DNA of 61,113 bases, filler included, from Stramenopiles sp. TOSAG23-3 (Eukaryota): assembly GCA_900128585.1 (NCBI GenBank). It is 12 parts of 12 records of this genome, joined end to end, with 100 filler letters (N's around TTAATTAATTAA, not from the genome) between each part and the next. Parts side by side here need not be neighbours in the genome. Positions count along the whole stretch, not along the records: positions 15,359 to 20,370 come from LT643638.1; 11 more parts are not named here. One strand, 5' to 3'. Below are positions 5,022 to 50,863 of this stretch, piece by piece (position 1 is the stretch's first letter; each line of letters begins with the position of its first letter). The position numbers and the translations under genes were made by a program. The notes under the pieces are model-generated. The model was not told the DNA's origin. It saw only the letters and a program-made list of their open reading frames with translations, and made no database searches.

Positions 5022-5121
5022 NNNNNNNNNNNNNNNNNNNNNNNNNNNNNNNNNNNNNNNNNNNNTTAATTAATTAANNNNNNNNNNNNNNNNNNNNNNN
5101 NNNNNNNNNNNNNNNNNNNNN
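5022..5121. other. Artificial contig linker N44-TTAATTAATTAA-N44 (also at 10141, 15259, 20371, 25477, 30573, 35668, 40763, 45854, 50943, 56030)
   Basis: Identical 100-bp spacer with stops in all six frames, seen 11 times; the contigs between them are in descending length order. Confidence 0.98.
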
Positions 5122-10140: not shown

Positions 10141-10984
10141 NNNNNNNNNNNNNNNNNNNNNNNNNNNNNNNNNNNNNNNNNNNNTTAATTAATTAANNNN
10201 NNNNNNNNNNNNNNNNNNNNNNNNNNNNNNNNNNNNNNNNTTCTTTCTTTCTTTCTTACAAATTCATCCCTTTCTTCTTCTTAAACACTTCTTCGTATTA
10301 TTGACTTGAAGCACCACAGTTTACAAGGGCCCGAGACTTGAAAAAGCCCGAAATAAGAACCTGCTACAGTGGTCCCGAGACTTTTTTAGGCCTAGAGGCA
10401 CCTCGATTTTCTTCGAAATTATACAGGTAAATAGCACGGGCTAATGGAGGGGCTACGAGGGACCTTAAATATACAACACTATGACTAAATCGTACTTGTA
10501 TCTGTCCTATCTGATTGCCCTTCTGAGCGCCTTGCAGAAAAAACGCTGCACAGGGAGGCAACATCGCTCCTCACTTTTTCCATTGACAAGAAAATCCACT
10601 TGACTATGTAAAGAGACATAAAGGCGAGGCACGGCAACAGCACATTTTTTTTGGCAGATAAAAATGGGGGGGACATAAAACCCTAACTTTGTAACAAATG
10701 CAACAAGCTATTGCCTGCTGCACTGTCATCACGGGAAAAACAATACACTAGCGGTACGGCGGATATTCTATATATTACTGGTATTACTGGCATTATAGTA
10801 ATACTATTCTCTTAGATAATAATAATAAAAAATAGAGTAATTCTCCTCTTGGTAACAATAAATACCAAGTGTAAGTTAGAATACCCAACCCTTGTTTCCA
10901 GAACTGCACTTGAAGCGTTTCAAGAAACTTCCCCGTATAACAGTCAACTTTTCAGACGGATGCGTAAAAGATAAACATCAAAAG

Positions 10985-13900
10985 ATGACAATAATTCTTT
11001 TCCTTCTCTTCACTATTCTCCACGCCACTTCGGCGACGGAACTCTCTACGGTGGCCTATGGACTCCGTGGCTTGGCCAACGCCTCCACCGGTTTCGTCCC
11101 CGAAAATTTCAAAGAGTGTGAAGCGCACTGTCCCATTCGCAAGATGAAAAATCCAATGGAACAGCTAAACGAGAAACGAAACGCCTTTAATTGCCGCAGA
11201 GACAACCGTCAGGTTTGCGAGAGAAAGACTTGCCACTTGGGCTACCACTGCTTCACAGAGACAAAGGACCAGTGGCGGAAGGATATCGGCCTTCTCTTTG
11301 GCGAGAAGCTGTGTCGGCTTGAAAAGCTGAAGGACAAGGTCCTAAGCAAAGACGAAGAAAAAGAGTGCAGCGAAGAGCGCCACGAGCATATCGAATTTCC
11401 AAACACTGTCACGAAAGGCTTCCTTGGCGACAAGTCCTTCTTCTATCCTCTCGCAGGGCAAGGCGACGGCAAAGAGCTTTGGAACTCGGTTCTCCGCTTT
11501 CTTGACGGCGGTACGGACGAGGCAGGGCTCGTTGGCCGCGGCGGGAAGAAGAGCGAAGAGAAGATTGATCTATTCTGCAAGAAATTCACAGGCGACCGCG
11601 AGGCCTTTCGAAAGAATGCGCAGGAGGTCGGCTTCAAGCTGCCCGCGCTAACCTACGACAAGCTGAAGGCCTTAGCTCCAGAGCATAAGGAGATAGCCCG
11701 GACGACTGCAAGGACACTTCTAAGGGTCTACGCCGAGCTGGTGCACGCGGTGGAAAGCGTCTTGGACGAAAAGGACCGCCTCGTCAAATATACACCAGAA
11801 GAGTCTTGGTGTGGGAGCGTTGAAAATGATCCGGTCTGCAAATACTGGTGCAGAAAACCAAAGAATTGGGAAGCGGTCGTAGGCGTAGCAAACGAAAGCC
11901 TTGCTCTTTTTGAGGGCTGCTTTCGGAACAAGGCCTTTGGGCAGAAACGCTGCACTGGCTCCGACTTTACGGCACTGGAGACAAAAGTGAAGGAACTTGC
12001 TCAGGGCTCGGCAGATTCTGAGTGGCTTTTGACGGCAGAGCATATGATGGGGCAGAGTACCGATGGAAGACTATTTGGGAAAGTTTCAGAAGTCAACGGC
12101 ATAGTAGGCTTTGTGACCGACCCAAGTAAGACTGCACAAAAACCTTTTTCAATGCAAGTCTCTGCTGGTTCGAGCAACACCTGTGGCATAACTTCAGAGG
12201 GTGAGATTGAGTGTTTTGGCGACAATGGCTATGGAAAGTCGAATAATTTAAAACCGAAGCAGGCCTCTTCGGGAAAATTTGTGCAGGTCTCTGTTGGTAA
12301 TTGTCACACCTGCGGCCTGACAACGGAGGGACAGATCGAGTGCTTTGGATGCAATTACCAAGACGGACGATCGAATAATTTTAAACCAAAGAAGGCCTCT
12401 TCAGGGCAATTTGTGCAGGTCTCTGCTGGCTATGAGCACACGTGTGGCCTGACAACGGAGGGTCAGATCGAGTGTTTTGGTAAAGATAGTGAGGGACAAT
12501 CGAATGGCTACAAACCAAAGAAGGCCTCTTCAGGGCAATTTGTGCAGGTCTCTGCTGGCTCTCAGCACACCTGCGGCCTGACAACGGGGGGTCAGATTGA
12601 GTGTTTTGGTAAAGATGGCGAGGGACAATCGAATGGCTATAGCACAAAAAAGTCATCATTCGGGACATATACGCAGGTGTCGGCCGGTAATAAACATACC
12701 TGTGGCCTGACAACGCAGGGCGAGATCGAATGCTTCGGTAGTGATGCCAATGGGCGATCGAATAAATTCAGACCAAAGAAGGCCTCTTCGGGGACATTCA
12801 CGCAGGTGTCGGCCGGTTATGAACACACCTGTGGCCTGACAACAGAGGGCCAGATGGAGTGCTTTGGTAGCGATTGGAACGGACGAGCAAATAAGTACAA
12901 ACCAAAAAAGGCCTCTTTGGGAAAATTTGTGCAGATCTCTGCGGGTTATTCTCACACCTGTGGATTGACAACAAAGGGCCAGATTGAGTGCTTCGGTAGC
13001 GATAGTGCGAAACAAACAAATGGTGATAAACCCGCAAAACCTTCTTCGTTGACATTCAAGGATGTCTCTGCAGGTCATTTTCACACCTGTGGCCTGACAA
13101 CGCAGGGCGAGATCGAGTGCTTTGGTAGTGATGCCAATGGGCGATCGAATAAATTCAGACCAAAGAAGGCCTCTTCGGGGACATTCACGCAGGTGTCAGC
13201 CGGTTATAGACACACCTGTGGCCTGACATCAGAGGGCCAGATGGAGTGCTTTGGTGACAATGGTGATGGGCAATCGAATGGCAAGAATCCGAAGAAGGCC
13301 TCTTTGGGAAAATTTGTGCAGGTCTCTGCGGGTTATTCTCACAACTGTGGTGTGACAACGGAGGGTCAGATCGAGTGCTTTGGTAGTGATGGTGAGGGAC
13401 GATCAAATGGCAATAAACCAAAAAAGGCCTCATCCGGGAAATTTATTCTGGTTTCTGCCGGTATGGCTCACACCTGTGGCCTTACAGCGGAGGGCCAGAT
13501 CGAGTGTTTCGGTTATGATGAAAATGCACAATCGAATAACTTTAAACCAAAGCAGGCTTTGATGGGAAATTTTGTGAACCTTGCCACTGGATCCCGTCAT
13601 ACATGTGGCATAACTTCAGAAGGTGCCATTGAGTGTTTTGGTGACAACGGCAACGGAAAATCGAATAATTTCAAACCAAAGAGGGCCTCGTCGGGAAAAT
13701 TTGTGCAGGTCTCTGTCGGTGATAGTCACACCTGTGGCCTGACGGTGGGTGGTGAGATTGAGTGCTTTGGTAGCGATGGCAACGGACGATCGAATAATTT
13801 CAAACCAAAGAAGGCCTCGTCGGGAAAATTTTTACGAGTTTCCGTCGGTTATGCTTACACGTGTGGCCTGACAACGGATGGCCAGATCGAGTGCTTTGGA

Positions 13901-15076
13901 AACGATGGCGATGGACAAGCTAACGGCTATCAGCCGAAGACTCCCTCGCCGAGATTCTTCTTGTTCAATGGCTGCTATGTTGCCGAAAGAAGGCTTGACT
14001 GCGATTGGAACATGAATCTCTTTTTCGAGGCCGGTATTCTTGTTCATAAAGCCTCCGCACACATCGTTCTTCGCGGTGCCGTGGGGAGCAAGCTTGAAGG
14101 CCAAGAGTTTGATATGAAGAAAATAGGAAACCGTGTGGTATTTGGGTCAAGCCACGACACGATGGTATCTGTTGCCTCGATTCCATACGGAAAGAAATCG
14201 TTTTGGGGACATACAACTAATGGATATCGCAGGAAACTTCTAAGTGCTTTCTACAAACGGGCTGGTACGACCAATGCAAGCCGATCTCCTATGAGAGGTT
14301 TGTTGAAGAAGAAAGCAAGCCTAGAGGCAAAGGTAGACAAAAAAGCCGATATTAATGAAGTAGAAATGTTAAAGGAACAAAATGCGCAGCTAGGAGCGGA
14401 AGTCAAGAAACTTAAAACCCACATGGGCATTGTCGAAGGCGTCGTCAAAAGCCTGCGCACGAATCGACCGTACCCAAAGAAGCCCTCACCACACAGAAAA
14501 TGCGGGAGGGCAATCACCCCGCGCTGGTACTATGAGCTGCTCTCCGATGACCGGCGTCGTGAGGTTGCCGGCTGTGCGAGGACAGCTGTGAATCTTGATT
14601 TGGAGAACACCAATGCCGTCGATGTCAAGGACTTAGCCTTGAACGGTGGCGTGGCGGTGCACGAGGAGGCAGCCCTCTTGGAGCTTGGGAGTGTTTCCTC
14701 GGGGGAGGTGTTGGACAAGCAGTTTGTCTACAAGGTTGAGGGAGAGGCGCCATTTTTGAAAGAGTCCGACCTGATCTACAATTTTATGACCAAGCAGACG
14801 GAGGCTGTCTACGACTGCAAGACGACGGCGAAACAGGTCTGTAGTGCCAGCGAGCACTCGCAGAAGCGAAGTAGCCTCAAAGTGACCGTCTACGAAGACA
14901 AGGAATGGTGCTGCAAGTCGAGTTCCCACGATTCGTGTGAAGAGCACTGCTTAGGTGATCTGACGCACCCCCGAGTGTACACGGTGAAGGTGACAGGGAC
15001 AAAGTATGAAATTCACGACGACCAGAAGCGAAGAAGGCTCTTGGTGAAGCGTTTCCGTGGCGGCGGTGGGTCTTAG
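10985..15076 (+). CDS. Secreted Cys-rich protein with 14 RCC1/BLIP-II-like repeats, a coiled coil and a Cys-rich C-terminus
   Basis: ATG 10985 followed by signal peptide MTIILFLLFTILHATSA; 14 copies of (V)QVSAGxxHTCGLTxxGxIECFG; coiled coil near LEAKVDKKADINEVEMLKEQNAQLGAEVKKL. Confidence 0.85.
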   Translation: MTIILFLLFTILHATSATELSTVAYGLRGLANASTGFVPENFKECEAHCPIRKMKNPMEQLNEKRNAFNCRRDNRQVCERKTCHLGYHCFTETKDQWRKDIGLLFGEKLCRLEKLKDKVLSKDEEKECSEERHEHIEFPNTVTKGFLGDKSFFYPLAGQGDGKELWNSVLRFLDGGTDEAGLVGRGGKKSEEKIDLFCKKFTGDREAFRKNAQEVGFKLPALTYDKLKALAPEHKEIARTTARTLLRVYAELVHAVESVLDEKDRLVKYTPEESWCGSVENDPVCKYWCRKPKNWEAVVGVANESLALFEGCFRNKAFGQKRCTGSDFTALETKVKELAQGSADSEWLLTAEHMMGQSTDGRLFGKVSEVNGIVGFVTDPSKTAQKPFSMQVSAGSSNTCGITSEGEIECFGDNGYGKSNNLKPKQASSGKFVQVSVGNCHTCGLTTEGQIECFGCNYQDGRSNNFKPKKASSGQFVQVSAGYEHTCGLTTEGQIECFGKDSEGQSNGYKPKKASSGQFVQVSAGSQHTCGLTTGGQIECFGKDGEGQSNGYSTKKSSFGTYTQVSAGNKHTCGLTTQGEIECFGSDANGRSNKFRPKKASSGTFTQVSAGYEHTCGLTTEGQMECFGSDWNGRANKYKPKKASLGKFVQISAGYSHTCGLTTKGQIECFGSDSAKQTNGDKPAKPSSLTFKDVSAGHFHTCGLTTQGEIECFGSDANGRSNKFRPKKASSGTFTQVSAGYRHTCGLTSEGQMECFGDNGDGQSNGKNPKKASLGKFVQVSAGYSHNCGVTTEGQIECFGSDGEGRSNGNKPKKASSGKFILVSAGMAHTCGLTAEGQIECFGYDENAQSNNFKPKQALMGNFVNLATGSRHTCGITSEGAIECFGDNGNGKSNNFKPKRASSGKFVQVSVGDSHTCGLTVGGEIECFGSDGNGRSNNFKPKKASSGKFLRVSVGYAYTCGLTTDGQIECFGNDGDGQANGYQPKTPSPRFFLFNGCYVAERRLDCDWNMNLFFEAGILVHKASAHIVLRGAVGSKLEGQEFDMKKIGNRVVFGSSHDTMVSVASIPYGKKSFWGHTTNGYRRKLLSAFYKRAGTTNASRSPMRGLLKKKASLEAKVDKKADINEVEMLKEQNAQLGAEVKKLKTHMGIVEGVVKSLRTNRPYPKKPSPHRKCGRAITPRWYYELLSDDRRREVAGCARTAVNLDLENTNAVDVKDLALNGGVAVHEEAALLELGSVSSGEVLDKQFVYKVEGEAPFLKESDLIYNFMTKQTEAVYDCKTTAKQVCSASEHSQKRSSLKVTVYEDKEWCCKSSSHDSCEEHCLGDLTHPRVYTVKVTGTKYEIHDDQKRRRLLVKRFRGGGGS
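12152..13950 (+). repeat. Intragenic tandem array of 14 units of about 129 bp (43 aa)
   Basis: Recurring acctgtggcctgacaac...gagtg(c/t)tttggt...aaggcctc; units 5-6 nearly identical to units 8-9. Confidence 0.92.
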
Positions 15077-15410
15077 GGCGCTCGAGGTTTTATACTCTCT
15101 ACTGTTGCTGCCTAGCATGGCATGCCTTTCCCCTTCTCCAGAGCAATAATTTTCTGAGGCAACCCCCAAACGGGCTCGTACTGCAAGTGAAGATTTCAAT
15201 TATAATATTTGATACTAATACGTAAACCGTTTCTTAAGTAAGAGAGTTATGACCCCAANNNNNNNNNNNNNNNNNNNNNNNNNNNNNNNNNNNNNNNNNN
15301 NNTTAATTAATTAANNNNNNNNNNNNNNNNNNNNNNNNNNNNNNNNNNNNNNNNNNNNTGCTAACGCTCCAGCCTAAACTCCCATTCCAGTGATATTATC
15401 GTCACCATTC

Positions 15411-16553
15411 CTATGTCATTTCGATCGCTGCATCGATCTTGTTCCCCACCAAAGAGCCCGCTCTCAACTGTGATTCTCCCAACAGTCTTGATATTGCTAG
15501 GCATTTCGACTTCACTTGTCTGCAGTAAACTTTCCAGCTGTCGGATTTCCAACGTCCGAATTCCATTATTTCCGCGTCGCTCGCTCCTCCTTCCCACATC
15601 ATCGTTGCGCCTCCTATCCTTCCTGAGTGTGTGTTGTACGAATTGCTTTCGATCCCTATTTTTTCCAGTGCTCTTTTTAGTCTCTTCGCGTATTCGTCTC
15701 TTGTCAAGTCAAACATTTTCTGATTCGCGCACCGAGCCCCTTCGCATTCCTTCACTCTGTCCCACGCTGTCGCTAACTCAATGGGGTCCCAGCTGCCTGC
15801 ACCGCTGTTCCGGTTCTGTTTCCTTTGGCATAGCACGACGTATTCGGGCAGCCCTTCGTTAAATCTTGATGTTTTTGTTTTTCTCAATGTTAACGTTATA
15901 ATCTGTGACGTTCCGGGCTCCGCGCTTCGTGACCCTGGGGTTCTTATCACTTCTGGCTTGATGTCCCTCCACTCCAGGTTCATTACCTCTGATATCCGTA
16001 ACAATCCAAAAATAGTGAACATTAGGATCGTCGCTGTCTGTAGACCATCCCGGTCTCTCACCTCAATCGCCCTCGACCTTTCCATCTCGTCGACCATTGT
16101 CATGAATATCGGCAACTTCCTCTTCTTCCCTGATCCGAATTGTTTCTTGATTCTCTGCATCATTTCTTCTAGTGCTATCGTCGGGTTCCATTCTTCTCTC
16201 GCTTCCTTTGTTGCTCGTATTAACGCCGCTAAATATGCGTTGAACGAATCTGCTGAAGTCATGGCCAATTTTCCTGCGTTCGCTCCTCTTATGACTTTTC
16301 GCTCGGTATTCCACTGCAACCAGTCTGCTATCCTTGCTGTCATTTGCTCTCTGTCTTGCCAACTGGTTCCGAATTTTACGTACGTATCTTGCCCAAATTC
16401 TCTGCAGAAGTTGCACCAATTCTTCACTCCGGTGGCTGTTGATTTCCGTGTGTTCGACGCATATCCATATTTGTAGTTATCCGTTCTACGGCGTTCCGCC
16501 AACTCTGTTCGTCTGTGGTCTTGAGTTTGTACCTCACCTGTTTGAAATTTGGG
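15411..16553 (-). CDS. Tyrosine recombinase (integrase) of the retroelement
   Basis: Catalytic set FGLLRISE (R), RKTKT (K), THSGRIGGAT (HxxR), GRWKSDSWKVY (W/Y). Frame open from the TAA at 16560-16562; no ATG until about 70 codons in. Confidence 0.88.
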   Translation of the reverse strand, partial: PKFQTGEVQTQDHRRTELAERRRTDNYKYGYASNTRKSTATGVKNWCNFCREFGQDTYVKFGTSWQDREQMTARIADWLQWNTERKVIRGANAGKLAMTSADSFNAYLAALIRATKEAREEWNPTIALEEMMQRIKKQFGSGKKRKLPIFMTMVDEMERSRAIEVRDRDGLQTATILMFTIFGLLRISEVMNLEWRDIKPEVIRTPGSRSAEPGTSQIITLTLRKTKTSRFNEGLPEYVVLCQRKQNRNSGAGSWDPIELATAWDRVKECEGARCANQKMFDLTRDEYAKRLKRALEKIGIESNSYNTHSGRIGGATMMWEGGASDAEIMEFGRWKSDSWKVYCRQVKSKCLAISRLLGESQLRAGSLVGNKIDAAIEMT

Positions 16554-18473
16554 ATTCTGTTAGTCACTGATCGAAAATCTGTCAAGTCGTCTCGGCTTAG
16601 TGCATCTGCTAGTCGGTTATCTTTTGATGAAATCCATTCTACTCGTGCTCTGCTTTTGCTCTCTGTTCTCCAGAATTTCAGTATTGTTCCTGCCTTTATC
16701 ATGGCTTTCACAATTAAGCGTACGATGATCGCCAAGTCCACATCTTTTGCTCTTCCTTTCTTGAGGGCGCTTGTCACACTCATGTTATCGCACCTCAGTG
16801 TCAAGTTGACCTTCCTACGGCTTAATTTCTCGCCAAACAACGCTATCAGTGCAAATACTCCTAAGCCTTCCTTGATGTGAATTTTTAAATCTTTTTCCTT
16901 TTCGTTCCATTTTCCGTACGCGTAACCGTCCATGCATACTGCCCCCCATCCTATACTACCAGACGCGTCTGAGGCCGGGGCGATCGTTCCCCTTGCTAAG
17001 CTGAATCCTTCCTTTGGAACGTCTTCCCATTTCTCTCTCATTAGCTTCTGCTTTCCGTTCCAGTTCTCCAAGTGATATAAAATTTCGATCCAATCGTGAC
17101 GAATGTCTTCTAACATTCTCACTCTGATTTCATCGGTCCCTTTACTTCTCTTGCGTTTCTTTCCACTTCCTGTTGATCGTTTTCTGTGACCATTCTTGAT
17201 CGCCCGTATCATGCTCCATGTACTCGTGAGGTACATCCGGATCTGTGGAATCGCTGTCGTCGTCCAGTTCACGACCCCTGTGGTTGATTCCCACTCTCGT
17301 AGTATCCTTTTGAAACCGACCGTCATGAATGCTTTCATTTCGTCCATAATCTCCACGACCCTAGGCCGTGGGATTCCAACCGTCAGGTTGGCCAGGTCGT
17401 ACATCAACCCCAGTACTGTCAACTCGCTGCTTCCTTTAACCCCATTTGGGTTGTCCTCTAAGAACTTTTTGTCTTGTCGTGGTATCTTCCACCTTTTGAA
17501 GAGGTCTAATGCCACCTGGACTGCTTTAGCGATTACGCTCTCATGCGCTATAATTACCAAGTCGTCAAAATACATCGCCGCTCTCGCTCCCCATTTACCA
17601 AAGTCTGTCTTCGTCACTAAGTAGGTGATAATTAACAATGGTAGTCTCAGAAAATTGTATACCGACGTTTTTAGTCCAAACGGCCATCTCTTGTGGTACG
17701 CTCTTTTCTCTCCGACTCGGAAACCTAGCGCCCACCAGTCCGCTGGGTTCGTGCATATCGTTCGAAACGCTGACTTAATGTCGATTTTCACACCTTTTAT
17801 TCCTCTCGGGTCTAGCCCTTCCCGCACGCACCAATCATGCACTTCCCAGATGTTATCATGCACTCTTTTCCCTTGCGGGAGTTCTAGCTTCTCAAACCTG
17901 CCCGTCTCTTCGTTGATCGAAAGGCCATCATGCCCTATTGCGGAGAAGTCGCTAATCGTCCTGCAGTTGTAAGGGTCGCCTCTTTCTTTTGCTTTTCTAT
18001 CAACTCGTGCTTTTGGGATCGCTCCTTGTTTCGTTTCCCGGAAGATCCTCATATTTTCCCCTCTGATCGCCACGTAACCCGCGCTCAATTCTTCTTCAAA
18101 TTTCTTGCTGACCTTCTCCTGTGCATTCTTTGTCATCGCGTAATTCGATTTTATTTCCACTGTCTTAAACGGTAATTCGAAGTTGCAGGGGCCTCCCGAC
18201 CTCAGGTATTGNNNNNNNNNNNNNNGGGTCGTACCGGCGACCCCACAGCTTATTTTTCTTTAACCTATCCCTTATCGTCACGAAATCTGCTGACGGGATT
18301 ATCACTTCGTTCAGGTCCCCAAAGTCGAGTGACCTGTAGATAACTTGGCCTTCTTCCACGCTTAATTGTTCAGGGGCGATTCCCATTTCCGCTCCTATTC
18401 TTCTCGCCTCTATCAGGTCTCGCCCAATGTGACCTGGTTGCGTGAGGCTTGGCGTGTGCGTCTCTTCGCCCTG
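16424..18473 (-). CDS. Reverse transcriptase / RNase H (pol)
   Basis: KIDIKSAFR, WPFGLKTS, MYFDDL (YxDD); RNase H SDASGSIGWG, HIKE, CDN, NRLADALSR. Extends upstream of 18160 (QYLRSGGPCNF) across the N gap 18212-18225 to the gag stop. Confidence 0.88.
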
Positions 18474-20287
18474 TCATTTTATGTTTTCCCATCGTGCGGG
18501 GCAACTCGCTCCACATTTGCCTTCCAAACACTTCATTCCTTCTGGGTACACCTTTTCGCACTCGTGGCTCCTTTTGCAATTATCGGACTTGCATAATCTT
18601 GTTCCTTTCATTCCCAGTTCATTTGCTATTAATTTGCCCCCACATGCGAAGAAACAACCCCACGACTTTGTTGCTGGATCCGCGTGGCGTGGAACTTTCG
18701 CTAGTTTTTCTTTGGTAAACTTAAACCCCGGGATGAATTTTGCCATTTTCCTTTGTAGAGCCGCTCTGACCACTTTCTCGTCTGCCGACAATTCGAAACC
18801 CGNNNNNNNNNNNNNNNNNNNTGTAATTCCTCCCACGTCATTCTTGTCACCTCGTCTCGGAGCCTTCTTTGCAAATCGAATTGCATCGTCCTCCATTTCC
18901 CTTCTTCGAATGTGTCTGCAAAGTTTCTTGACACCTGTTGTCCCAGCTCCCAGAGCACTCTAGTGATCGCTTGATGTGTCACTTCCCATACTGTCGTGAA
19001 TTCCCTGTCAATCAGATGTAGCCAATCTTGAATCTTGTTAAAAATTCCTGGGAGCAATGGCTCCCAATATCGTCGGATCAGCGGCAGCGCTGTTTGCGAG
19101 ATCAAATTTCTCCATCTGTCGAATGATGTGATCGCCCGCGCGTCTCTGCTGAGCACATCCCATGCTTCCGCGTCGCCTCCGTCGATACCCAATGAATCCA
19201 CGATTCTTTCCGTTATCGCTAACTCCTTTGCCCGCGACCTTGATTTAGCCGACCTGAGCTCTTTACCGTACTCCTGTTGTCCTTCTCTCGTCAGAATTGG
19301 CGCCCATTTGAAAAGTTCTCCGAGGTCGAACCTAAAAACTGCGAATGCGAGACTCGTGGGAACTACTGCCGTTTCGGCCTGTGACATCTCGTTTTTCAGT
19401 TCCTGAATCATGAGTTTCTCCGGTTTTGATAACGCTTCCATAAACATTTGTCCCTTATATTGTTTGCATTTCCATATCACTTTTGTCGCCGCCGATATAT
19501 ACGCTTGTCGATTGGGAGAGATAGGAGAGTTATACGTACCTGTTTCTGTGAGCCGGGCTTGTGGCGTGGATACTGTTCTCCGGAACTCTGGTAATGCTCG
19601 CATCTGCTCCGCTTCCGGGTATCCATTCCTTCCTAGCTCTTGATATCTCTGTCCGAGTTGCGACGCTGGTCTGAAACCCCCGCCTTCTGGAAAGCTTTCT
19701 GGTAATGTGGGTGGCGATCTCCCCATACGACTATTCAGCGTCGCCAATGTTTCGTCGTGATTTGCACTGGCTAAGTGCATTCGTGAATTCGGGGGAGTAT
19801 AAAACTCTTGTCGTTGCCAACCCACCTGTGTATTCGGCGTATGCCTTGTCGTTAGTATACCCGGATGTGTCCGCTTTGTCCTCTGTGTTTCCAACACACG
19901 GATCTTAGCTTGGAGGGTGTTCAACAACCTATCTCTTTCTTCTTCTGCCGCGCTCTGCGCTCTTGCATCTTCTTGAAGTGCTTGGATAACCTCGTTTTGC
20001 CGTGCCAGGTCGACGTCCCTCTTCTCCACCTCTGCCCTCAGGCTGGTGATCTCCAAATCCTTGTCGTCAATTTCTGGGAAGTCAAACTCTTCCACTTCGT
20101 TCCCTGGCACTGTTAGTGCGTTGCTGCTTGTCCCATCCTCCGTATTCGCCACTGGTTGGGTCTGCGTGTCTGCGGGTGTCCCTGACCCTGATGCGTCGTC
20201 CCCATTGTGCGGTGCGGTCTGCGCATTTGCGGATGGGCGGCTGGGGTTTTGTCCCCGGCCTTTCCTTTTGCTTGTTCTTCTTGGCAT
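18474..20287 (-). CDS. Gag-like ORF1 with coiled coil and C-terminal Cys/His cluster
   Basis: ATG 20287 (MPRRTSKRK); coiled coil LRAEVEKRD...LETQR. After the N gap 18803-18821 comes CFFAC...CKSDNCKRSHEC...CLEGKCGASC, ending in TGA 18474-18476. The join across the gap is inferred. Confidence 0.7.
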
Positions 20288-20470
20288 ACTTAAAAAATAA
20301 TTTTTCAACAACGTTTGGTTTTCTTTTTGTTTTCCTGATGGTAGATTAAATAAATCTAAGCCACTGTTCANNNNNNNNNNNNNNNNNNNNNNNNNNNNNN
20401 NNNNNNNNNNNNNNTTAATTAATTAANNNNNNNNNNNNNNNNNNNNNNNNNNNNNNNNNNNNNNNNNNNN

Positions 20471-23400
20471 CGAAATGGAGGGCCAAGTGTGCAAATTCTT
20501 TCAACCGTACTGCACTGGCTATGAAATGCCCATATTTATACCTGCCTTCACTTGCGAAATAACCGTCGTTAGCGTTCTCGACGCTTCTTACAGGCTGTAC
20601 GCTGCTGATGGACAGCATCTACCATTTTCGCTTCATCCACCGTTTTCCCAGCTAGAAAAGTTGCTACAGGAAGTAGTCACTGGAATCGTTGATTGCTCGC
20701 AGATGTACCCATCGGTACAGTTTAGCGAAGAAGATGAAATCGTCACGTGTGGGATTCCTGATGCGCAAATGGAAGCTGCTAGGCTAGAAAAGAAGAAAAT
20801 ACTGCGCGAGCAACAACTTGCAGCAGCAATTCAGGCCATGGAGGAAGCGCAAGAGCGAGGGGAAGAGGTCGACCCCGATGATTATTTGATAGAAGAAGAA
20901 AGTGACGATGATAACGAAGATGAGGAGGAGGAAGTGGCAAAGCTAAATGCACCAGTTGTTCCCGGGATTTTTGTCAATAATTCGATTGTTGCGGAAATTC
21001 GTGAAAAGATAACGCGAGTATTCAAGCTCACGGAGCCGGCGGTAAACAAACTCTTGATGAGTTTTGAGGGCTACGCTCCCTTGTTCGCGCCAGGCGTCGA
21101 TGCTAAAATTAAGCGAATGGCGGAAGGCGTGTGCTTTGCAAAGCTTCCGGAGTTTTATCGTACCATCGATTCTTACATGGAAATGCATACAAACATTTGG
21201 AATCACTGTGACCATACGGAATACCTACCACGAGGACTTGTGGAAATCAAGACTTTTAAATTTGTTCGCGTGCTTGCTGCGCGGGCCTTAGAGCTCGGCA
21301 GGGTTCTTTTGGAAGCTGTAAAGCAGCAAGCCTTGAGTTTATGCGAGGAGCTCAGTGTTAAGTACCAACAATTAGTCGATCGATTGCATGAAGAAATGGG
21401 GTCTTCCGACGAAATTTATGAAATGCGTTTGTCTATTGAGAATATAACAAAGGTACAGATCCCCCACCTTAAAGATTCATTCAACGGAGACGAGGGCTTG
21501 ATAAAGTTTGTAGAGCTTTTGATTGAATTTGCATACAAATTTGAGGAAGAAGACCGTTTAGTCTTTCGCAAAGCCTACAGGTGGCCGCAAGAATTGCAAA
21601 CTGAGTTAGGAAAAGCGAATGCAAAGGTGCTTAAGGAGTCTGAAAAATACCTCGGGTTTCTCAAAGTCCAACGAGAGCAAATGGATGGCGATGTTAAAGC
21701 AATTAGCTCGGGACTGAAATCTTTGCAAACGAGGGGAGGGCTGTCGCAGCAAGCAATTATTGAAATGAACGTCAGGATTACTGGCCTTCGCAAAGGCATG
21801 GAAAATGCTCAAAATTTGGCAATAGTCATAAAGAACGAGGAACGAAACCTAGGGCAAAACGACAGCGAGTATGCCGATCAACTAGATACTTTAGACAGTT
21901 TCTTGGAGCCCCTAGAAGCCATGTGGTCTACGCTAGCAAAATACCAAGGCTCATCCCTCCTGTGGTACCACACGCCCATACAGTTTGTCAATAGCAAAGC
22001 CGCCAGGCAAGAAGCCGATGTTATGGTGCGGCAATTTAACAAAATAATGCTGACGGAGGCGGTGGGGCAAGCCCCTCCGTCTTTGATAGCAGGCAAAGGT
22101 GCCGTCAAAGAAATTGAAATTTTTCTTGAAGAACATTTCACACTTCTATCAATGGTTGCCACCCCGGGGCTTACTGAGGAGCATTGGCGGCTGATCTCGA
22201 AAGAAATTGGACTGAAAGTTGAGTTTAGCACAAAAATGACGTTAGACAAGCTCATAAAAATGTACCAGTTGCACCAGAAAACTAGTCTGATGGAGGCTAT
22301 ATGCTTACGTGCACATCAAGAGTGGGACGTACACCTTGCTTTGGATTCTATGGAAGGGGAATGGGACGACTTTAATTGTGATATGCTTCAGCACCCGCTG
22401 TTGCCGCATAAAATGATACACCCCCACTGCGACGAAGACACGGAACTTCTTCTTGATGAGCAGGCTTTAAGAACGAAATCACTGTCTGTCGTGGAGGCAG
22501 CAATCCCCCACATGGAAAGAGTGAAATCCTGGATGAAGACGTTGAAAAAAGCGGACGAAACAATGAGGCTATGGCTGTATGTCCAAGACAAATACTTTCA
22601 CTTGGCAGCCATATTTATTCACGATGAAGTCCGAGTACAGCTTCCAGAGGAGGGCGATATTTTGGACGCGGTGAAACTAATCTGGGATAAGGTGATGGAT
22701 ATGGCAGCCGAAGGGAGCATATTTGACCAGTTAATCAACGACGATTTTTCCCAACTCTTAGAGGATAGCAGGGCATCGATAGAAATAGTACAGGAATCGC
22801 TTATGCAATACTTGACGTCGAAACGAAAAGGTTTCCCTCGATTTTACTTTCTTAGCGATGAAGAAATTATGAAGATGCTTTCAGATTCCAAAGATAGCGA
22901 TTCGATTCAAAAACATTTCAGCAAAGTTTTTGACGGTCTTGTGGGCCTACAGTTCGGTGCAACAGACGCAGATGGGGATGCCTCTAGGTTTATTGACCAG
23001 AGCGATATAATTGCTATGAAAGGAGCGGGCAATGAAAGTATAGGTTTTAAAAAACGGCAGTTTCGTCTTAGAAAAGGCGTTACCAAGCAAATGGCCGCGG
23101 ACTATACTGGGGAGGCCATGTCCTACATAAACCCAGATGTCCAAGTCCTCTCTATCGATATATGGCTAGCTCAAGTCGAAGAGGAAATGGGGAATGTATT
23201 GAAGGAAACTACTGACTTTGCTATCCGTGCTTACAGTCGAATGTCGAAAAAGGCCTGGTTATCCAGATGGCCTCTTCAAGCAGTTCTAGCCGTGAAGCAC
23301 ATATTCTGGACTATGAATGTTGAAAGGTGCATTAACGATGGGTTTCTTGAGAATGCGTACAACACTTTATCGGATCAGCACGAAGAAGACTTGAAAGAGA

Positions 23401-25397
23401 CTGTACGGCTGCTGAGACTGGAAAAGAACATTCGGCAATGGAATTCTTTGAACTCTGTGATCACCATGCAAACCTATCAGCGGGACGTCATCAAGCTGGT
23501 AAGAACTGAAAATGTATCAAATATAACGGACTTTTCTTGGACATCGCATATACGCCATTACTACACCCGTCCGATGAAAATGAATGGGATTCAACAACCA
23601 TCCACTTTGGAGGTTGCTTTGCTTGGCGTGTCAAACAAGTATGGATACGAGTATTTAAAAGCTTCTTCCAGGTTGGTGCTGACACCACTTACATTAAGAT
23701 GCTTTAGAAGTCTCAGTGTCGCTGCCCGAATGAAATATTTTGGAGCCTTGCATGGTCCAGGTGGAGTTGGGAAAACAGAGACCATTAAAGATTATACTCG
23801 TTTGTTGGGAAGAATGTGCTTGGTTCTGAACTGCTCAGATGCGGTTACCCCGGCTCTTACAGGAAGGATTATAAAGGGTGTCGCAGCCTCGGCAGTCGCC
23901 ATTTGCTTCGATGATTTTAACCGGATGTCAATGAGCGTAGTGAGCGTTGTGGCCCAGCAATTAGGAGTGATTCGCCAAGCAACTATCGAAGCTGTAAAAG
24001 AAGAATTTCTCTTTGAAGGCGAGAAGATCCGTATAAATGAAACTTCTTATGTTTTTCTAACAATGAACACAATGGTTTTTGAGAAGCACACCGTTCCCGT
24101 TAGCTTTAAGACTTTGTTTCGAGATATCACTCTGACGCATCCTAATTATGGTACGATATGTGAAGCTGTTTTGACTGCTTCAGGGTTTTATTATAGCCAC
24201 GAGATGGCCAAATTGATCACAAGCACTTATGACCATTGCGCAGAAGTGTTTTGCACGGATAGCACCCACGATTGGAGTTTACGCCCAATGAAGGCAGTTT
24301 TTCGAACGGCAGCAGACGAAATACGTCATTCTGTGCGAGTGTCAGATCTGAAAGTGCAAAAACACGAAGAAAAGAACATGATCTACCATTCCCTAATCCG
24401 AATTCATGAGCCTCAATTCGACCACTTTGAAGAAGTGATTTTTCGAAATATTGTTGATCGTGTGTTTGCCGGTGAAAGCGGGGAAAAATTTAATTTTCAG
24501 AATTATGATGTTTACAAAACATTGCAGGGTTTATGTACCACCCCTGCGTTTCACCTAAACCCCACCAAGGCTTTTGTGAAAAGAGCTGTTGCCCTTTACG
24601 AAACGCTGTACGCAAGAAAAGGCGTCTTGTTGCTTGGAGAGACCCTTGTTGGGAAAACAACGTGCTTGAGGCTTTTGACGGCCGCTTTCCCATTGTTGAG
24701 AAACTTAAAACCTGCTCTTCCCACACATTTCAAAGATTTTGTTGATGCTAGTATTGAAACGTACGCCGTGAGCTCAAAAGCGTACTCAATGGAAAACTTA
24801 TTCGGTCGTTTTCACGAATTCGACAATTCATGGGTTGAAGGCTTTGTAGAAAAGGTTTTGGCGGCATCTGGGACTGGCGGACAGTCAAAATGGCGGTCTT
24901 GGTTGATTTTTGATGGCCCCGTGGACACAGTCTGGATTGAATATTTAAACAGCGCTTTGGACGATACTAGCCGTCTTTCACTGGCAAATGGAAAAAGCGT
25001 AGAAGTTCCACAGAATTTTCGTTTTATTTTTGAAACATCTTCTATTGCCTCCTGTACACCAGCATCAATTAGTAGGTGTGGGACAGTCTTCATGACCCCA
25101 ACGGATGTAGGATGGCAATCCCTGGTCGACTCTTGGCTTAAGAAAATCAGCAGCGAAGAAGAAAATATGACAAAGACAGAGAACAAGCGCAAACTGGTCA
25201 AGTCAAAGACCGGTTTGCCCACAGAGAAGAAAAAATCCAAAAGGCTTGTGAGACGCGAGTCCATTATGACTACCCGCTCTTCTTTGAATTCATTTTCAAA
25301 GAAAAAAAAGTTGCACAACCTGAAAGGTTCCCACTGCAGTCATTTTACTGCTCTGTTTGAGTGGTTGATACCCCCAATTAATCTGCTGTTTGAAATG
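20471..25397 (+). CDS. Axonemal dynein heavy chain, partial (tail end, linker, AAA1, AAA2), divergent
   Basis: KRKGFPRFYFLSDEE, YGYEYL..RLVLTPLT.RC, GPGGVGKTET, HDWSLRPMK, GETLVGKTT, WLIFDGPVDTVWIE..N..LDD, CTPASISRCG. Confidence 0.92.
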
Positions 25398-25476
25398 GAA
25401 GGCAGGTATAAATATGGGCATTTCATAGCCAGTGCAGTACGGTTGAAAGAATTTGCACACTTGGCCCTCCATTTCG
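20471..25476. repeat. Exact 79-bp terminal inverted repeat (20471-20549 / 25398-25476)
   Basis: cgaaatggagggcc...cctgccttc is the exact reverse complement of gaaggcagg...ccatttcg. Confidence 0.95.
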
Positions 25477-45561: not shown

Positions 45562-46032
45562 TTCGTACGAACTAGACACGAAAGGACAACGGCGATCAGA
45601 AAAAAACTGCGTAGAATCCTAATGCTACGCTAAAGACACTCTCACTCCACTTTCAAGATTACACACATCAACGCGCACACAAACTCCCTCTCAACAATTC
45701 GTTGTGAAATCTAATTTGAAGGAAATTTCGTCATCTGTGTAATACTCGTCATCTGTGTAAACGACTCTAAAATAATAAAAAAACATACACCATTATAATA
45801 TTATTATAGCTTAATAAAAAAATGTAATAAAATAGATCTCTCTCTCTCTTCTCNNNNNNNNNNNNNNNNNNNNNNNNNNNNNNNNNNNNNNNNNNNNTTA
45901 ATTAATTAANNNNNNNNNNNNNNNNNNNNNNNNNNNNNNNNNNNNNNNNNNNNTCACCAACCAACTGGAACCTGATTTCATGTACCTTCCATTTGGTGCA
46001 GAAAGTTGTCCTTTTCGCGTTGCATCCCCTCC

Positions 46033-46651
46033 CACCGTTCCCAAGAAAATCGTCTTGAGTACGGTTGTTGAAGTATGTACTTAGTCCTACAGCGCCTTGC
46101 GTTTTCTTCCGTTCCATCTTGCCCATATCGGATTCCTTCTTTGTGTACGGAACAATGTACAGGGTCTCCCCATCGATAATATCGCTCACTCTGCAAACCT
46201 GTACGTTCGTGGCGTCAAAAATTGCTTTTACGTGCACCATGCGCAACCGTTCGCAAATGCCACGAAGAAAATTGTCCCAACTAATACTGTTCGGTACTAT
46301 GTACCGCTTTCGTTCGTTGGGTTTATTTTTTTGTGCCAACACTATCTTGAGCGACTCGACCACGGGTTGGACCGGAGCGCTGTATGCTTTTCCCACTTCC
46401 TTGCCACTTTGGGACGTGGACTCACTTCCTCGTTCTATTCCTAAATCATAATCATCCTTTGCGGTACCATTGCTCCGACCCGAGCTGGAAGTAGAACTGT
46501 ATACGCTCATTCCGTCCACCGGCCCCTCTTGCTTTGTATACCTCCGTCTATTATGTTTGTACTCACTATTTCTATCGGTTTCGCGTTGCCTTCGTGGGGG
46601 CACTGGCTGGCGCTCAGTGGCACGGTTGCCACTTCTAATGTACTGATCCAT
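46033..46651 (-). CDS. Hypothetical protein with a ubiquitin-like (KHA/DCX-type) domain, 3' truncated
   Basis: YIVPNSISWDNFL..ICERL....IFDA....V..VSDIIDGETLYI. Confidence 0.5.
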
Positions 46652-47440
46652 TTCCCAGGCTTTCGTTCTCCAGCGACCACCGAACGTATCTTTTGTCTGA
46701 AACGGAAGTATTTAATCCCTGCGTGAAAGAGAAAAAAAAACTGTATTCCAATCGAAGAATACTTTTAAACTAACAAACACTTCATCGTGTCAGTTTATTA
46801 TTATCAAATATATAAATTTAAAAAAAATGACAAACAAACAAAAAACTCTTCTCCTACCCTCTCCTCCTCTTTCTTCTTTTTTTACCTGTTCTTTCCTGTA
46901 TTATTATCCTATAATAATACTGTATTCAAAAATGAAGTTCCCTTCTTCTCTTTCTTATTTATTAGGAGCTAGGAGCTAGGAGCTTCGTAGCAGTACTTTA
47001 ATTATAATATAGTTTTTACTTTTTCTTACTTTTTCGGTGAAACGCTTATAACCCTATTTATAACACTACAATCGGCGACAGGGGTCTTTTTATTAATAAT
47101 AATAATATATAAACACAGCATTAACAATATTTTATATCCTGTGCTATATACTATATACGAGTAGTTAAGTAAAACAGTAAAACCCACTGCCGCCGCCGCC
47201 GCCGCCGCCGGACGACCGACGACCGGAGGAGAGAAGAAGAAGAAGAATCTTTTTTTTTTGTTGAATTTTTTTATTTCAAGAAGCGACAAGTGATAAAATA
47301 TTTTTTTATGATGTTTCACTTAATGGCTTAATGGATACATGGTGTATATTTTATTCCATTTGAATTTATGCATAGACGGATCGTATTTTGGTGTTAGACC
47401 GGAAAAGAAAACTGGAGTATCCCCTCTTCAACGTTTTACA

Positions 47441-49549
47441 ATGGTCCCTCTGTGCAGAACTACCGTCCTGCTGCTCTTGTCGCTCTTGTCGTGGGCAGCT
47501 GTCGTCTTCGGTTATGCACCGTCGGGGTATCGTTCTGTGTTAGGGGATCCAGGTATGCGTTGGAATGGGAAAGATGCAGCAAAACCACTAGGACCGCGAA
47601 TGCAATTGTTCTTTTACAACTTATGCAGCAAAGCAGGATTTACGAATATGTCTGTCATTCCGAGCACCAAAGATACTTGCACAATTACGAAAGGGGCACT
47701 TCTTGGCATGGGAGCCATTAAAAACGTCGCGTCCGACGACTGTTGCACGGCTTGTTTGAATGAGCCGTGGTGTTTGGCATGGACGTACTGGAAATCATCG
47801 AATGGTGTTGGTAACTGTGATTTAAAGGATAACACGGTACCACAGACAATACCGCCACCACTTCCGAGGAAGGATTTCAGTCCAAGGAAAGGAAACTGTG
47901 GGTTGACGAAGTACCAACCGCCGGAAAATTGTATTGACACGAGAGTGGGATCAGGAGCCATCAGGGCACGGGAAAATGGTATCACAAGCTTTGCAACGTG
48001 CCAGGCTTACTGTGAGAAAAATTGTTCGACGGCATGCACGTTTATATCGTACTCCTCCGCGCATGATGATTGCAGCTGGTACACGGAGTGCGATCTGGAC
48101 GAACTTCCTCAGGGGGCTGACTATTACTCCGCTGCGATCCGTCAGCCGATCCCACCAACTTCGTCCGGTGTTCGCGCGTATCATCATCAACAGGCACTTC
48201 CGTCCCCTCGATACGCAAATTGCGTTGTTGATGGTGAGCAGACAATCTCCAAATCCGACAATGAAGCGAAGAATACTGGCGAAATGGACGACGAGTGGTT
48301 TGCGGTCCTCAAGGAGCACGCCCTCGCGTCCAAGTGCGCGCTAACTGACACGAAGACTAGGTTTCCGTCCTTCTTTTGGACAGTGATGAGTCAAAATGGA
48401 AATGCTCCGTCCAGCCTGGGCAGTGCAGACGAGTGTTTGCCATACTGTTTCGTTGATTACGGCCCTAGGTCGAATATTTCGGGTTATCCCCCGGCGGTTA
48501 ATGCTTCCGCTAAACGTTGCATCAATGACGCGTCGGCACCGAAGACCCCAAGACTTCAATTTAATAGCAAGCCAATGAATCAGGCAAAAGTTATGACGGC
48601 TTTTACGGACGCGTCTTCGCCCGAGCTGATTGGTAGTTTCAACTGGACCTTCGAGTTGGACGCTGACCTTACAGTGCCTGAGGCCAAGTTTCCAAAAGAC
48701 AAAAGTTTGGGAGTGTGGTCTTGGCGCTTTGACAAAGCCTCTCAAAAAGGGATTGTCCGGATGTACCAAAGGGTGTCGGAGTTGTACCCCTGGGTCTGCA
48801 CTTATTTCGGCGTCGATGTAGGAATGGGGGTAAAGGGGAACCAGGCGTACGATGGTCGAGGAATGATGACAGAGTCCCCCCTTGCCGGCACCGATTTTAT
48901 CGTTCGATTCTTTTTAAATATCACGCGGGATGATATTGGAGGTGGCGGCGGCATCGGATCGTGGTACTTGCTGAACATGGAAAGCTGTTGGAATCAAGTG
49001 ACAGGAAACAATTGCCGGCCCTATGGCAACACAAACCAAAACTCGCACCAGCAAGTTTTATTGGATTATGGGGGCAGCGATAGCTGTACAGCGGATGAAC
49101 CGTTGGGGTGCCCTGTGTATCATGTTGAAAAGAACGGCACAAAAATTCATCGATTGGACAAGGCACATTTTCCCTACGATGCCTACAAACAGTATTGCTG
49201 TCCATGCACCAGCTGTTCAAAGTGCAACGACCTTAACGTGCCATGTTGTGATCCATTGTCTAACTCTAATGGGCAGTCGATCTACAAAATCGCACCTCAT
49301 CCAATTTGGGCAGTCTATGGGTTCCCAAGAAATGCCACGGACGGGTTTCTGGGCGACCCAAAAATGCACGAATTGCACGTTGGAAAATTATGGGATCAAA
49401 TTTGGTTTCCATGCCCGGCAACGGAATCCATGGAAATTATTACTTTAAATATTGGTCCAGAAACTGGGTATGGGACCGGGACACACGACACTGAATTCTT
49501 TCTTTCTGATTTTGATGTCCTTGTACCAGCAAACAAAGCAAGCAGCTGA
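47441..49549 (+). CDS. Secreted Cys-rich protein resembling an uncharacterised land-plant family (DUF7705-like, by recall), with PAN/apple-like inserts
   Basis: Signal peptide; SVLGDPGM, FWTVMSQNGN, YDGRGM, CPVYH, FPYDAY, CDPLSN, PHPIWAVYGFP, WELxVG-like, LSDFDVL; DDCCTACLNEPWCLAWTY and CQAYC...CTFISYS apple-like units. Confidence 0.65.
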   Translation: MVPLCRTTVLLLLSLLSWAAVVFGYAPSGYRSVLGDPGMRWNGKDAAKPLGPRMQLFFYNLCSKAGFTNMSVIPSTKDTCTITKGALLGMGAIKNVASDDCCTACLNEPWCLAWTYWKSSNGVGNCDLKDNTVPQTIPPPLPRKDFSPRKGNCGLTKYQPPENCIDTRVGSGAIRARENGITSFATCQAYCEKNCSTACTFISYSSAHDDCSWYTECDLDELPQGADYYSAAIRQPIPPTSSGVRAYHHQQALPSPRYANCVVDGEQTISKSDNEAKNTGEMDDEWFAVLKEHALASKCALTDTKTRFPSFFWTVMSQNGNAPSSLGSADECLPYCFVDYGPRSNISGYPPAVNASAKRCINDASAPKTPRLQFNSKPMNQAKVMTAFTDASSPELIGSFNWTFELDADLTVPEAKFPKDKSLGVWSWRFDKASQKGIVRMYQRVSELYPWVCTYFGVDVGMGVKGNQAYDGRGMMTESPLAGTDFIVRFFLNITRDDIGGGGGIGSWYLLNMESCWNQVTGNNCRPYGNTNQNSHQQVLLDYGGSDSCTADEPLGCPVYHVEKNGTKIHRLDKAHFPYDAYKQYCCPCTSCSKCNDLNVPCCDPLSNSNGQSIYKIAPHPIWAVYGFPRNATDGFLGDPKMHELHVGKLWDQIWFPCPATESMEIITLNIGPETGYGTGTHDTEFFLSDFDVLVPANKASS

Positions 49550-49913
49550 AGAAAAAAAGAAGAAGAAGAAAGCAATAATAAAGTAGTGTAAATTTACATA
49601 AGGAATAATGTGTATTATTTATTATCTATAATATTAATCTATAGAATAATATAACTTGTTTTATCCAGGTATTAATATTTCATGATGAGACCTTTCCTTA
49701 ACAAATTGTTTTTCCGTTATTATTTAACTCTTTAGGGACTGCGATTGAACGAATTGGGAATTGAGAAATTGAAAAGGTAAGAGAGCAATAAAAGATAATT
49801 AGAAGAAAACACACGCATAGAACCATTTAAATGTAAACCGTTCACAAAAATCAAACGCTGTGTTGAAAATAACATAGGAAGAAAGTTAGCTGGGTAGCCT
49901 TGGTGTGTTTTTT

Positions 49914-50863
49914 ATGGAGGTTCCAAGGAAAGACGATGCGGGGCACGACGAACATAGGATGCACGCCGGCCTTCACCCCCGGACTGCTGCCAATACCAAC
50001 TTAGAGACGATGTTCACGAAAGCCTCCGAGGATACGCATGGAATGACGCCGTCTGAACGAACGCGGCAGCGGCAGGTTGCACGTGCGCATTCGCATCACC
50101 CCAATTCGACTTTGAAGAAAGATATAAACAACCATGGGCTGCAAGAGGCAGACCCTTTGTCCTCTTTTGTGACTACCGCGCCGATAAAGCGAGAGTGGAT
50201 GAACTACTCCGGCGAGAAACATATTAGAGAAGTTGCGACGGATGGGGACATGAGCAGGAAAGTAATCCCAGACCCGAGAAAGAAGTTCTCTGTAACGGCA
50301 CGGGAAAAGTTAAAAGAGTACGAGTTAAAGACAAAAACCGTCGAAGAACGGGAAGCGGAAACCGAACGGTTCAACGAGTCGATGCGCCAACTGTTGACGT
50401 CTACTTTTTCCCAGGCGAACATAGAGAAACATGAAATAGAAACGCCGGAGGTATTCTCCGTGAACGATACCGTTCTTGTTAAGTGGGGGAAACAGTGGAT
50501 GCAAGGGAAAGTGTTGAAAGTGGAGGAAACGCAGATCCGGGTCTGCTACCATGGGCACAATGCTGAGTCGGAGCGTTGGATCGAGCTCGACAACGGCAGA
50601 GTGCGACACCAAACGATGTATAGAAATCTCCGTTTTACAGAACACCGAAGGGGGGCGTTCCCAAAAGTTGGGGATGGCGTGTTGGTTCGCGTTATCGACA
50701 CAAAGTACTCTGGCATTTTTAAAGGCTTCGGCACAGGACTACTAGGCGTCTGCGTGAAGTGTTTGCCGGACAAAGATGCAAGCATGATACAGGTCGATGA
50801 CAATAAACTTGTACCAGGGTTCTTGGGGATGTTTGCCAACAGTCACCTCTCGATCCGGTATAA
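49914..50863 (+). CDS. Tudor/Agenet-like domain protein (3' end uncertain at the inverted repeat)
   Basis: FSVNDTVLVKWGKQWMQGKVLKV...VCYHGHNAESERWI; a second SH3-like unit PKVGDGVLVRV. Confidence 0.55.

Follow-up and report, generated by a model that had tools for sequence, protein, structure and literature searches.

An in-frame UGA between the gag-like and pol reading frames of a Ngaro-like retrotransposon as a candidate stop-codon readthrough site

How is the polymerase of a retrotransposon translated when its reading frame continues that of gag and is separated from it by a single stop codon? This question is raised by a contig of Stramenopiles sp. TOSAG23-3 (LT643638.1), which occupies positions 15359-20370 of the 61,113-nt stretch of DNA analysed here (the window). 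On its minus strand, the contig carries a gag-like open reading frame (ORF), a reverse transcriptase (RT)/RNase H ORF (pol), and a tyrosine recombinase (YR) ORF, and the initial annotation had proposed that the UGA between the first two is read through. We found that the stop lies in frame with pol, that proteins of another lineage end at the same residue, that codons ahead of the first downstream AUG are conserved, that the stop stands in a readthrough-prone context, and that UGA is a genuine stop codon in this element. Readthrough, its rate, and the fusion as the functional form of pol are what we infer from these features. Stop-codon readthrough at UGA 18476-18474, giving a Gag-Pol fusion, appears to us to be the best explanation, with a probability somewhat above even. 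The expression of pol and recombinase relative to gag is essentially undescribed in YR retrotransposons (DIRS, Ngaro, PAT, VIPER), and a conserved in-frame UGA would provide a testable expression model for this order, in which an uncleavable Gag-Pol is made.

Conservation on both sides of the gag stop

The minus strand reads ...CCC GCA CGA UGG GAA AAC AUA AAA UGA CAG GGC GAA GAG... at the junction, which bears out the UGA at 18476-18474 (context AUA AAA UGA CAG GGC) in frame with pol. The Cys/His-rich C-terminal part of the gag-like ORF1 (18477..18800, on the minus strand like all features of the element given below; P0004) ends in ...CPARWENIK immediately before it, and the stop-to-stop ORFs 18959..18474 (gag end) and 18473..18165 share one frame, with codon starts at 2 mod 3. 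As had been described, the frame past the UGA stays open through MGIAPEQ, whose ATG lies at 18386-18384, into a run of N at 18212-18225, and both other frames are closed. The junction from 18800 to 18227 is uninterrupted sequence, and a tblastn alignment of one relative, P0019, passes straight across the UGA in a single frame (18707-18177).

The initial annotation had to assume frame continuity across the two assembly gaps on either side of the junction, a caveat that is settled by homology to P0007 on the gag side and to P0009, P0010, and P0161 on the pol side. The gap in gag consists of 19 N (18803..18821) and hides about 32 aa, across which P0007 reads ...TWEELQKQAVSP...QPKFELSADEK. The gap in pol consists of 14 N (18212..18225) and hides about 31 aa according to the three pol relatives, which read ...WGRAYDERLDDRP...YCDGQFVQYLRSGGP across it. 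Since the relatives span ~32 and ~31 aa at these places, the N-run lengths of 19 and 14 are untrue and the frame changes across the gaps are artefacts. Each short N run in the element stands for ~95 nt and represents a scaffold gap of arbitrary length.

All Trp codons of the element are UGG (43/43), and UGA occurs in frame only at the end of gag and at the end of pol. The UGA is therefore a genuine stop codon and not a reassigned one. At the end of pol, P0009 and P0161 share the last residue (E) with the window's pol, and P0010 ends a few residues earlier.

Our comparisons are based on one DNA copy, that of the window, and on relatives at the protein level. A word-indexed search of 5.8 billion proteins with P0006, which represents the junction with the stop written as X, returned four matches longer than 335 aa; among proteins of 105-335 aa, none of the 91 candidates scored. 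An exhaustive phmmer search with P0009 against 1.84 billion representatives gave 11 matches at E<=1e-30 and 59 at E<=1e-10. The family is rare. Additionally, profile scans of genome contigs with two pol alignments yielded 52 and 164 pattern stretches and no relative, in a collection that evidently does not include the element's own contig. Within the window, tblastn with six proteins matched contig 15359-20370 only, that is, no further copy of the element was found there.

The position of the stop is shared beyond the window. P0007 (531 aa) and P0008 (345 aa), which stem from other contigs, both end in ...CPSRWENNK at the same residue at which the window ends in ...CPARWENIK. Residues 425-531 of P0007 align to 18797-18477 with 70.1% identity, and the tblastn alignment ends at 18477, the last sense codon. 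P0007 and P0008 are close to each other and are thus counted as one further lineage. Given this common end point, the stop is no peculiarity of the window copy. The earlier concern that the UGA might be a nonsense mutation confined to this copy is hence contradicted at the protein level by relatives of ~70% identity.

On the pol side, 29 codons lie between the stop and the AUG at 18384..18386, which stands in the context GAA AUG G and opens MGIAPEQL. This is the first AUG after the stop in any frame, at a stop-to-AUG distance of 87 nt, with 0 AUG in any frame in between. An alignment of the pol N-terminus comprised 12 sequences: four have gene calls that start at the Met column (P0011, P0012, P0013, and P0040), and the other eight extend upstream of it (the window, P0009, P0161, P0064, P0056, P0019, P0048, and P0049). 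These eight share the motif L-x2-A-R-x-I-G-x2-M, with R(-6) in 8/8, L(-10) and G(-3) in 7/8 each, and A(-7) in 6/8. The set includes the distant P0048 and P0049 (25-26% identity to P0009), in which the Met lies deep inside a longer ORF. Before the Met, 7 of 12 residues are identical between the window and P0009, as counted from the alignment, which is the same level as the ~60% over the whole of pol. Residues 5-66 of P0161 align from 18425, that is, from 13 codons 5' of the AUG (tblastn), and the equivalent stretch in the AlphaFold model of P0161 (residues 2-17) forms a helix with a predicted local distance difference test score (pLDDT) of 88-93.

Based on the motif kept in eight sequences and the confident helix in the P0161 model, the proximal 11 of the 29 codons (18387..18419, DLIEARRIGAE, with the motif L-x2-A-R-x-I-G) are protein-coding. 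The distal 18 codons (18420..18473, QGEETHTPSLTQPGHIGR) are variable and look like a linker. Protein-level conservation between the stop and ATG 18386, which had been proposed as a check, therefore holds for the proximal codons in 8/8 sequences and does not extend to the distal ones, for which the relatives are not alignable. The codon-usage score of all 29 spacer codons is 0.209, compared to an in-frame mean of 0.139, and 3.8% of off-frame windows score as high. The distal 18 codons alone score 0.123 (in-frame mean 0.137, off-frame mean -0.129), a value attained by 8.7% of off-frame windows; the codon usage of this part is compatible with the frame and weakly informative. Past the AUG, the N-terminal region of pol up to the gap (18227..18383, GIAPEQL...SLDFGDLNEVIIPSADFVTIRDRL...; P0001) is homologous to the N-termini of P0009, P0010, P0161, and P0011-13.

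With no AUG between the stop and 18386, translation of the conserved helix is most simply explained by entry from gag, and the 31 AUG triplets in the gag region upstream make leaky scanning unlikely. We propose that most ribosomes on the full-length RNA would stop at UGA 18476-18474 and yield the gag-like protein, while a minority would decode the UGA by a near-cognate tRNA, aided by the AAA-UGA-C context. The latter ribosomes would translate the variable linker of ~18 codons, then the conserved helix at the N-terminus and the RT/RNase H, to give Gag-Pol. This fusion would stay uncleaved, since the element is without a protease. Single-ORF copies of the YR element TATE are reported in Bodo saltans (PMC6681497), which shows that such fusions are tolerated in this order.

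Stop context and competing explanations

The leaky context put forward in the initial annotation stands in part. With C at +4 and A at -1 and -2, the gag stop has readthrough-prone features: UGA is the leakiest of the stop codons and C the leakiest base at +4, the tetranucleotide UGA-C, the leakiest of all, gives 3-4% readthrough in mammalian cells, and a stimulating effect is exerted by A at -1 and -2 (PMC4615788). Of the stop-CAR context, one half is present, as CAG follows the stop, and is then continued by GGC instead of YYA. As in type II viral sites (UGA-CGG/CUA) and cellular UGA-C genes of Drosophila, the UGA is followed by C here, and A is present at -1 and -2; among readthrough candidates of Drosophila, UGA-C accounts for 32% (PMC4615788). 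The present site differs from the type II context in that AG GGC follows, not GG or UA(G). In the series C>U>G>A, the A after the pol stop is the tightest base, unlike the C after the gag stop. The contexts of the two are opposite (gag AAA UGA C, pol GAG UGA A), and that of the YR stop is UAG G.

A hairpin downstream of the stop had also been noted, and it is indeed present in the minimum free energy fold (18414..18436): CAGGUC (18436-18431) and GACCUG (18419-18414) form a 6-bp stem that closes a loop of 11 nt and begins at nt 38 past the stop. Its possible function as a stimulator found no support. When the 100 nt were dinucleotide-shuffled 2000 times, 218 of the shuffles gave a perfect 6-bp hairpin, and the stem is 37 nt off the stop. 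In gammaretroviruses, the readthrough structure follows an 8-nt spacer rule. A pseudoknot drawn by eye between loop UUGGGCG and CGCCAA 20 nt past the stop was rejected on account of its geometry, which would require a loop of 1 nt to span a stem of 6 bp.

Several further observations weigh against readthrough at this site. Viral readthrough motifs are of the types UAG-CAAUYA, UGA-CGG or UGA-CUA, and UAG-G plus pseudoknot (PMC4615788), and UGA CAG GGC fits none of the three, nor UGA-CUAG. The fold downstream of the UGA is unremarkable (z-score -0.95), with the hairpin at chance level, and the whole contig has 0 Rfam matches at E<=1. A stop-free in-frame spacer of 29 codons in one copy amounts to a coincidence of about 1 in 8 (estimated as 1/3 x (61/64)^20-29), so that the in-frame arrangement is meaningful only through homology. 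The Met at the 18386 column is found in 11 of the 12 aligned sequences, P0056 having Q, and in the window its AUG has a good initiation context, with a purine at -3 and G at +4. P0161, P0064, and P0056 carry an AUG of their own 11-17 codons upstream of the Met column, and pol could thus have its own start in the family. In Tca2, a copia-type long terminal repeat (LTR) retrotransposon of Candida albicans, the flanks of the gag-UGA-pol junction alone gave no readthrough in a reporter assay, and a promoter was found in the junction (PMC2194720); the layout is therefore no proof of the mechanism. The EukProt gene model P0019 (g5393.t1) runs, uninterrupted by a stop, from a gag-type Cys module (CFFKCGGDLIAAKLGIKGVSLCKGGEC) straight into the conserved helix of pol. 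The model is without a segment of ~45 residues, stop included, which is kept as protein in the window and in P0007/P0008, and the fusion may reflect a predicted intron laid over the stop. P0019 was accordingly downgraded from a proof of natural gag-pol fusion to an ambiguous case. Overall, the readthrough interpretation is supported by the in-frame stop, the retroelement type, the stop position, the proximal codons, and UGA-C, and not by the hairpin or by a full CAR-YYA context.

The conserved Met column would be explained if pol were a separate protein started at AUG 18386, by termination-reinitiation, by internal ribosome entry, or from a subgenomic or internally promoted RNA, and no fusion were made. 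The gene calls of P0011, P0012, P0013, and P0040 that begin exactly at this column, the GAA AUG G context, and the position of 18386 as the first AUG after the stop in any frame are all in line with such a start. Furthermore, the SART1 retrotransposon uses reinitiation (PMC10275272), Tca2 provides the precedent of a junction promoter (PMC2194720), and a free pol seems natural for YR elements without a protease. We nevertheless consider a separate pol unlikely, since a start at 18386 would leave the conserved helix, present in 8/8 sequences and confidently modelled, untranslated in the window copy. The distance of 87 nt between stop and AUG also compares poorly with the ~20-30 nt required for viral reinitiation by TURBS (the termination upstream ribosome-binding site; PMC10275272). 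The Met itself is replaced by Q in P0056 and is internal in P0019, P0048, and P0049, and the columns I(+2) and Q(+6) are as conserved as the Met, which may thus be a structural residue. UGGGA is the core motif of TURBS and lies 14 nt before the stop as well as over the AUG, yet it occurs 18 times in 5 kb, dictated by W-E and M-G codons. The motif is therefore uninformative, and TURBS-type reinitiation was discarded as a candidate.

A free pol containing part of the helix would result if translation started at a non-AUG codon of the spacer. In-frame near-cognate codons are available at -25, -23, and -19 (ACG), at -14 (AUU), and at -10 (CUG), and in P0009, which has no AUG upstream of its Met, the gene call opens with a V codon that precedes this Met by 18 residues. 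However, this V reflects a prokaryote-style gene call or a contig edge and is no evidence of use, CUG -10 lies within the conserved motif, and ribosomes would have to pass the 31 upstream AUG triplets; we rate such a start as very improbable. Similarly little credit is given to the possibility that the stop marks a dead or decaying copy, through a nonsense mutation or an assembly error, and that functional copies have a sense codon. It is true that the contig is a gapped short-read scaffold and that P0019 is fused without a stop, but this gene model is without the whole ~45-aa segment and does not show a sense codon at the stop, and P0007 and P0008, from other contigs and at only 70% identity, stop at this very residue. 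In addition, all ORFs of the element are intact, including the YFDD of the RT and the H-x-x-R and Tyr region of the YR, with no other in-frame stop in 1682 codons. Least probable of all, in our assessment, is that the stop is spliced out or that the host reads UGA as an amino acid. Splicing would agree with the direct join of the first Cys module to the pol helix in P0019, in which the stop region is skipped, but the window and P0007/P0008 conserve the skipped segment at the protein level, which makes it coding sequence and not an intron. A reassigned code is at odds with the exclusive use of UGG for Trp, with the restriction of in-frame UGA to the gag and pol ends, and with P0009 and P0161 ending on the same E as pol, and selenocysteine with the lack of a selenocysteine insertion sequence or other Rfam match in the contig.

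The element, its pol-YR junction, and known systems

Readthrough of the gag UGA would operate in an element whose remaining parts identify it as a gag / RT-RNase H / YR retroelement, that is, a tyrosine-recombinase retrotransposon (order DIRS sensu Wicker). The upstream part of the gag-like ORF1 (18824..20368; translation P0005) is open from the contig end, has its first Met codon at 20287-20285, and is 69.7% identical to P0007 over 396 columns. ORF1 has no Pfam family, and its best Atlas score, 0.87, is below the lead level of 0.9 and points to no family. For this reason, the label gag is based on position and on the Cys/His tail only. The tail (18477-18680) contains a C-x3-C-x17-C-x4-C module common to P0007, P0008, and P0019, and a second Cys cluster found in the window and P0007/P0008 only; this is no canonical CCHC knuckle, and Pfam returned no family.

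The RT/RNase H ORF (16424..18211; P0002) carries the YFDD motif, has its UGA stop at 16426-16424 (context GAG UGA AGA), and is 60-63% identical to P0009 and P0010. Pfam RVT_1 matches P0002 with E 8.1e-6 and 26.1 bits, which is under the cut-off of 29.6. The AlphaFold model of P0161, a 60%-identical pol relative, has a mean pLDDT of 86, and solved structures that it matches with E 1e-14 to 1e-11 are those of the RT-RNase H from CaMV, MoMLV, Ty3, foamy virus, and HIV, among them CaMV 8r0s (E 1.2e-14), MoMLV 4mh8, and Ty3 4ol8. The complex of MoMLV RT with eRF1 (5dmq) is also among the fold matches. In MoMLV, binding of RT to eRF1 is said to favour readthrough, which is a possible lead for the RT of the present element.

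The YR ORF (15411..16559; P0003) lies in the -1 frame relative to pol, overlaps it by 136 nt, and ends with UAG. Phage_integrase matches P0003 with E 3.6e-8 and 33.8 bits, over the Pfam cut-off of 27.1, and the protein shows HSGR (H-x-x-R) and ...WKVY. A protease (RVP) or a DDE integrase (rve) was not found by Pfam in any of the five ORF pieces at E<=0.1. There was likewise no Pfam match to a methyltransferase domain, for which there is no room, as pol ends inside the start of the YR ORF. By ORF order and domain content, contig 15359-20370 is the coding core of a Ngaro-like element: Ngaro elements, for example those of Cafeteria burkhardae, also have the order gag-like, RT/RNase H, YR and are without methyltransferase, protease, and DDE integrase (PMC8547959, PMC3783388, PMC3266345). 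Split direct repeats (A1-B1 ... A2-B2) are the defining feature of Ngaro, and here the contig ends 52-83 nt outside the ORFs. In this contig, a repeat search gave short two-copy matches only, with 74-88% identity, the sequence outside the ORFs amounting to just 52-83 nt.

A YR ORF that is frameshifted relative to RT-RNase H is also reported for fungal Ngaros (PMC3783388). Here, it opens at 16559, shifted by -1 against pol, and does not reach a Met before residue 73. Within three codons after this opening, the pol frame contains C CCA AAU (16553) and A AAU UUC (16550), two overlapping heptamers in tandem (together 16544..16553) that are candidate sites of -1 slippage. The 100 nt past this slippery site hold no structure beyond that of shuffles (z 0.05). 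These features are suggestive of a candidate -1 frameshift site in the pol-YR overlap. Two recodings might then occur on one RNA, namely a context-driven UGA readthrough giving an uncleaved Gag-Pol and a -1 frameshift at C CCA AAU UUC giving Gag-Pol-YR; we regard this combination as doubtful. If true, double recoding would set the protein ratio in protease-less Ngaro-like YR retrotransposons of microbial eukaryotes, and it would represent the first description of recoding for the DIRS order as well as a nested three-product polyprotein without proteolysis.

Gammaretroviruses make Gag-Pol by readthrough. Their type III arrangement resembles the present one in that the pol frame is open right behind a single in-frame stop that separates it from gag, and in its expected output of much Gag and little Gag-Pol. 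In contrast to the gammaretroviral UAG-G with pseudoknot, the stop here is UGA-C, no significant structure lies near it, and the element has no protease. Tca2 is similar in having gag, UGA, and pol with a putative downstream structure, and its pol is made from the gag-pol RNA (PMC2194720); it differs in belonging to the LTR/copia order and in having a protease.

In the accessible text of the literature, our search found no paper linking Ngaro or DIRS to translational readthrough or to an in-frame gag-pol stop, and an earlier remark in the subscription literature is possible. As far as their available parts go, papers on YR elements mention overlaps, frameshifted ORFs, or transcriptional readthrough only (PMC8547959, PMC3783388, PMC6681497, PMC3266345, PMC9210276, PMC8226300, and a zebrafish preprint), and gag-pol readthrough is discussed for LTR retrotransposons (PMC2194720). 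The junction is thus plausibly a testable readthrough site in an order of elements without a documented case, and the mechanism itself is known, not new. It would add a structure-independent UGA-C case to the readthrough sites of retroelements.

Layout of the window

The 61-kb window consists of 12 separate contigs that are sorted by length, from 5021 down to 4984 bases, with a G+C content of 0.33-0.53. They are joined by N44-TTAATTAATTAA-N44 spacers with a period of ~5.1 kb (5022-5121, 10141-10240, 15259-15358, 20371-20470 etc.). The retrotransposon is the fourth contig, which the element takes up entirely. Because the contigs are unrelated, the flanking ones, which encode an RCC1-like repeat protein and a putative dynein heavy chain, give no genomic context. 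Two contigs, 20471-25476 and 45954-50942, have an exact 79-nt inverted copy of their own terminus at both ends, which is probably an artefact of de Bruijn-graph (k-mer sized) assembly. The first of these also contains an ORF of 1701 codons that is dynein-heavy-chain-like by eye. On another contig, 10880-15076 (plus strand) is an ORF of 1398 codons in which a unit of ~50 aa, of the type ...VSAGxxHTCGLTxxGxIECFG..., is repeated in tandem ~17 times. These repeats presumably correspond to RCC1-type propeller blades, which they resemble.

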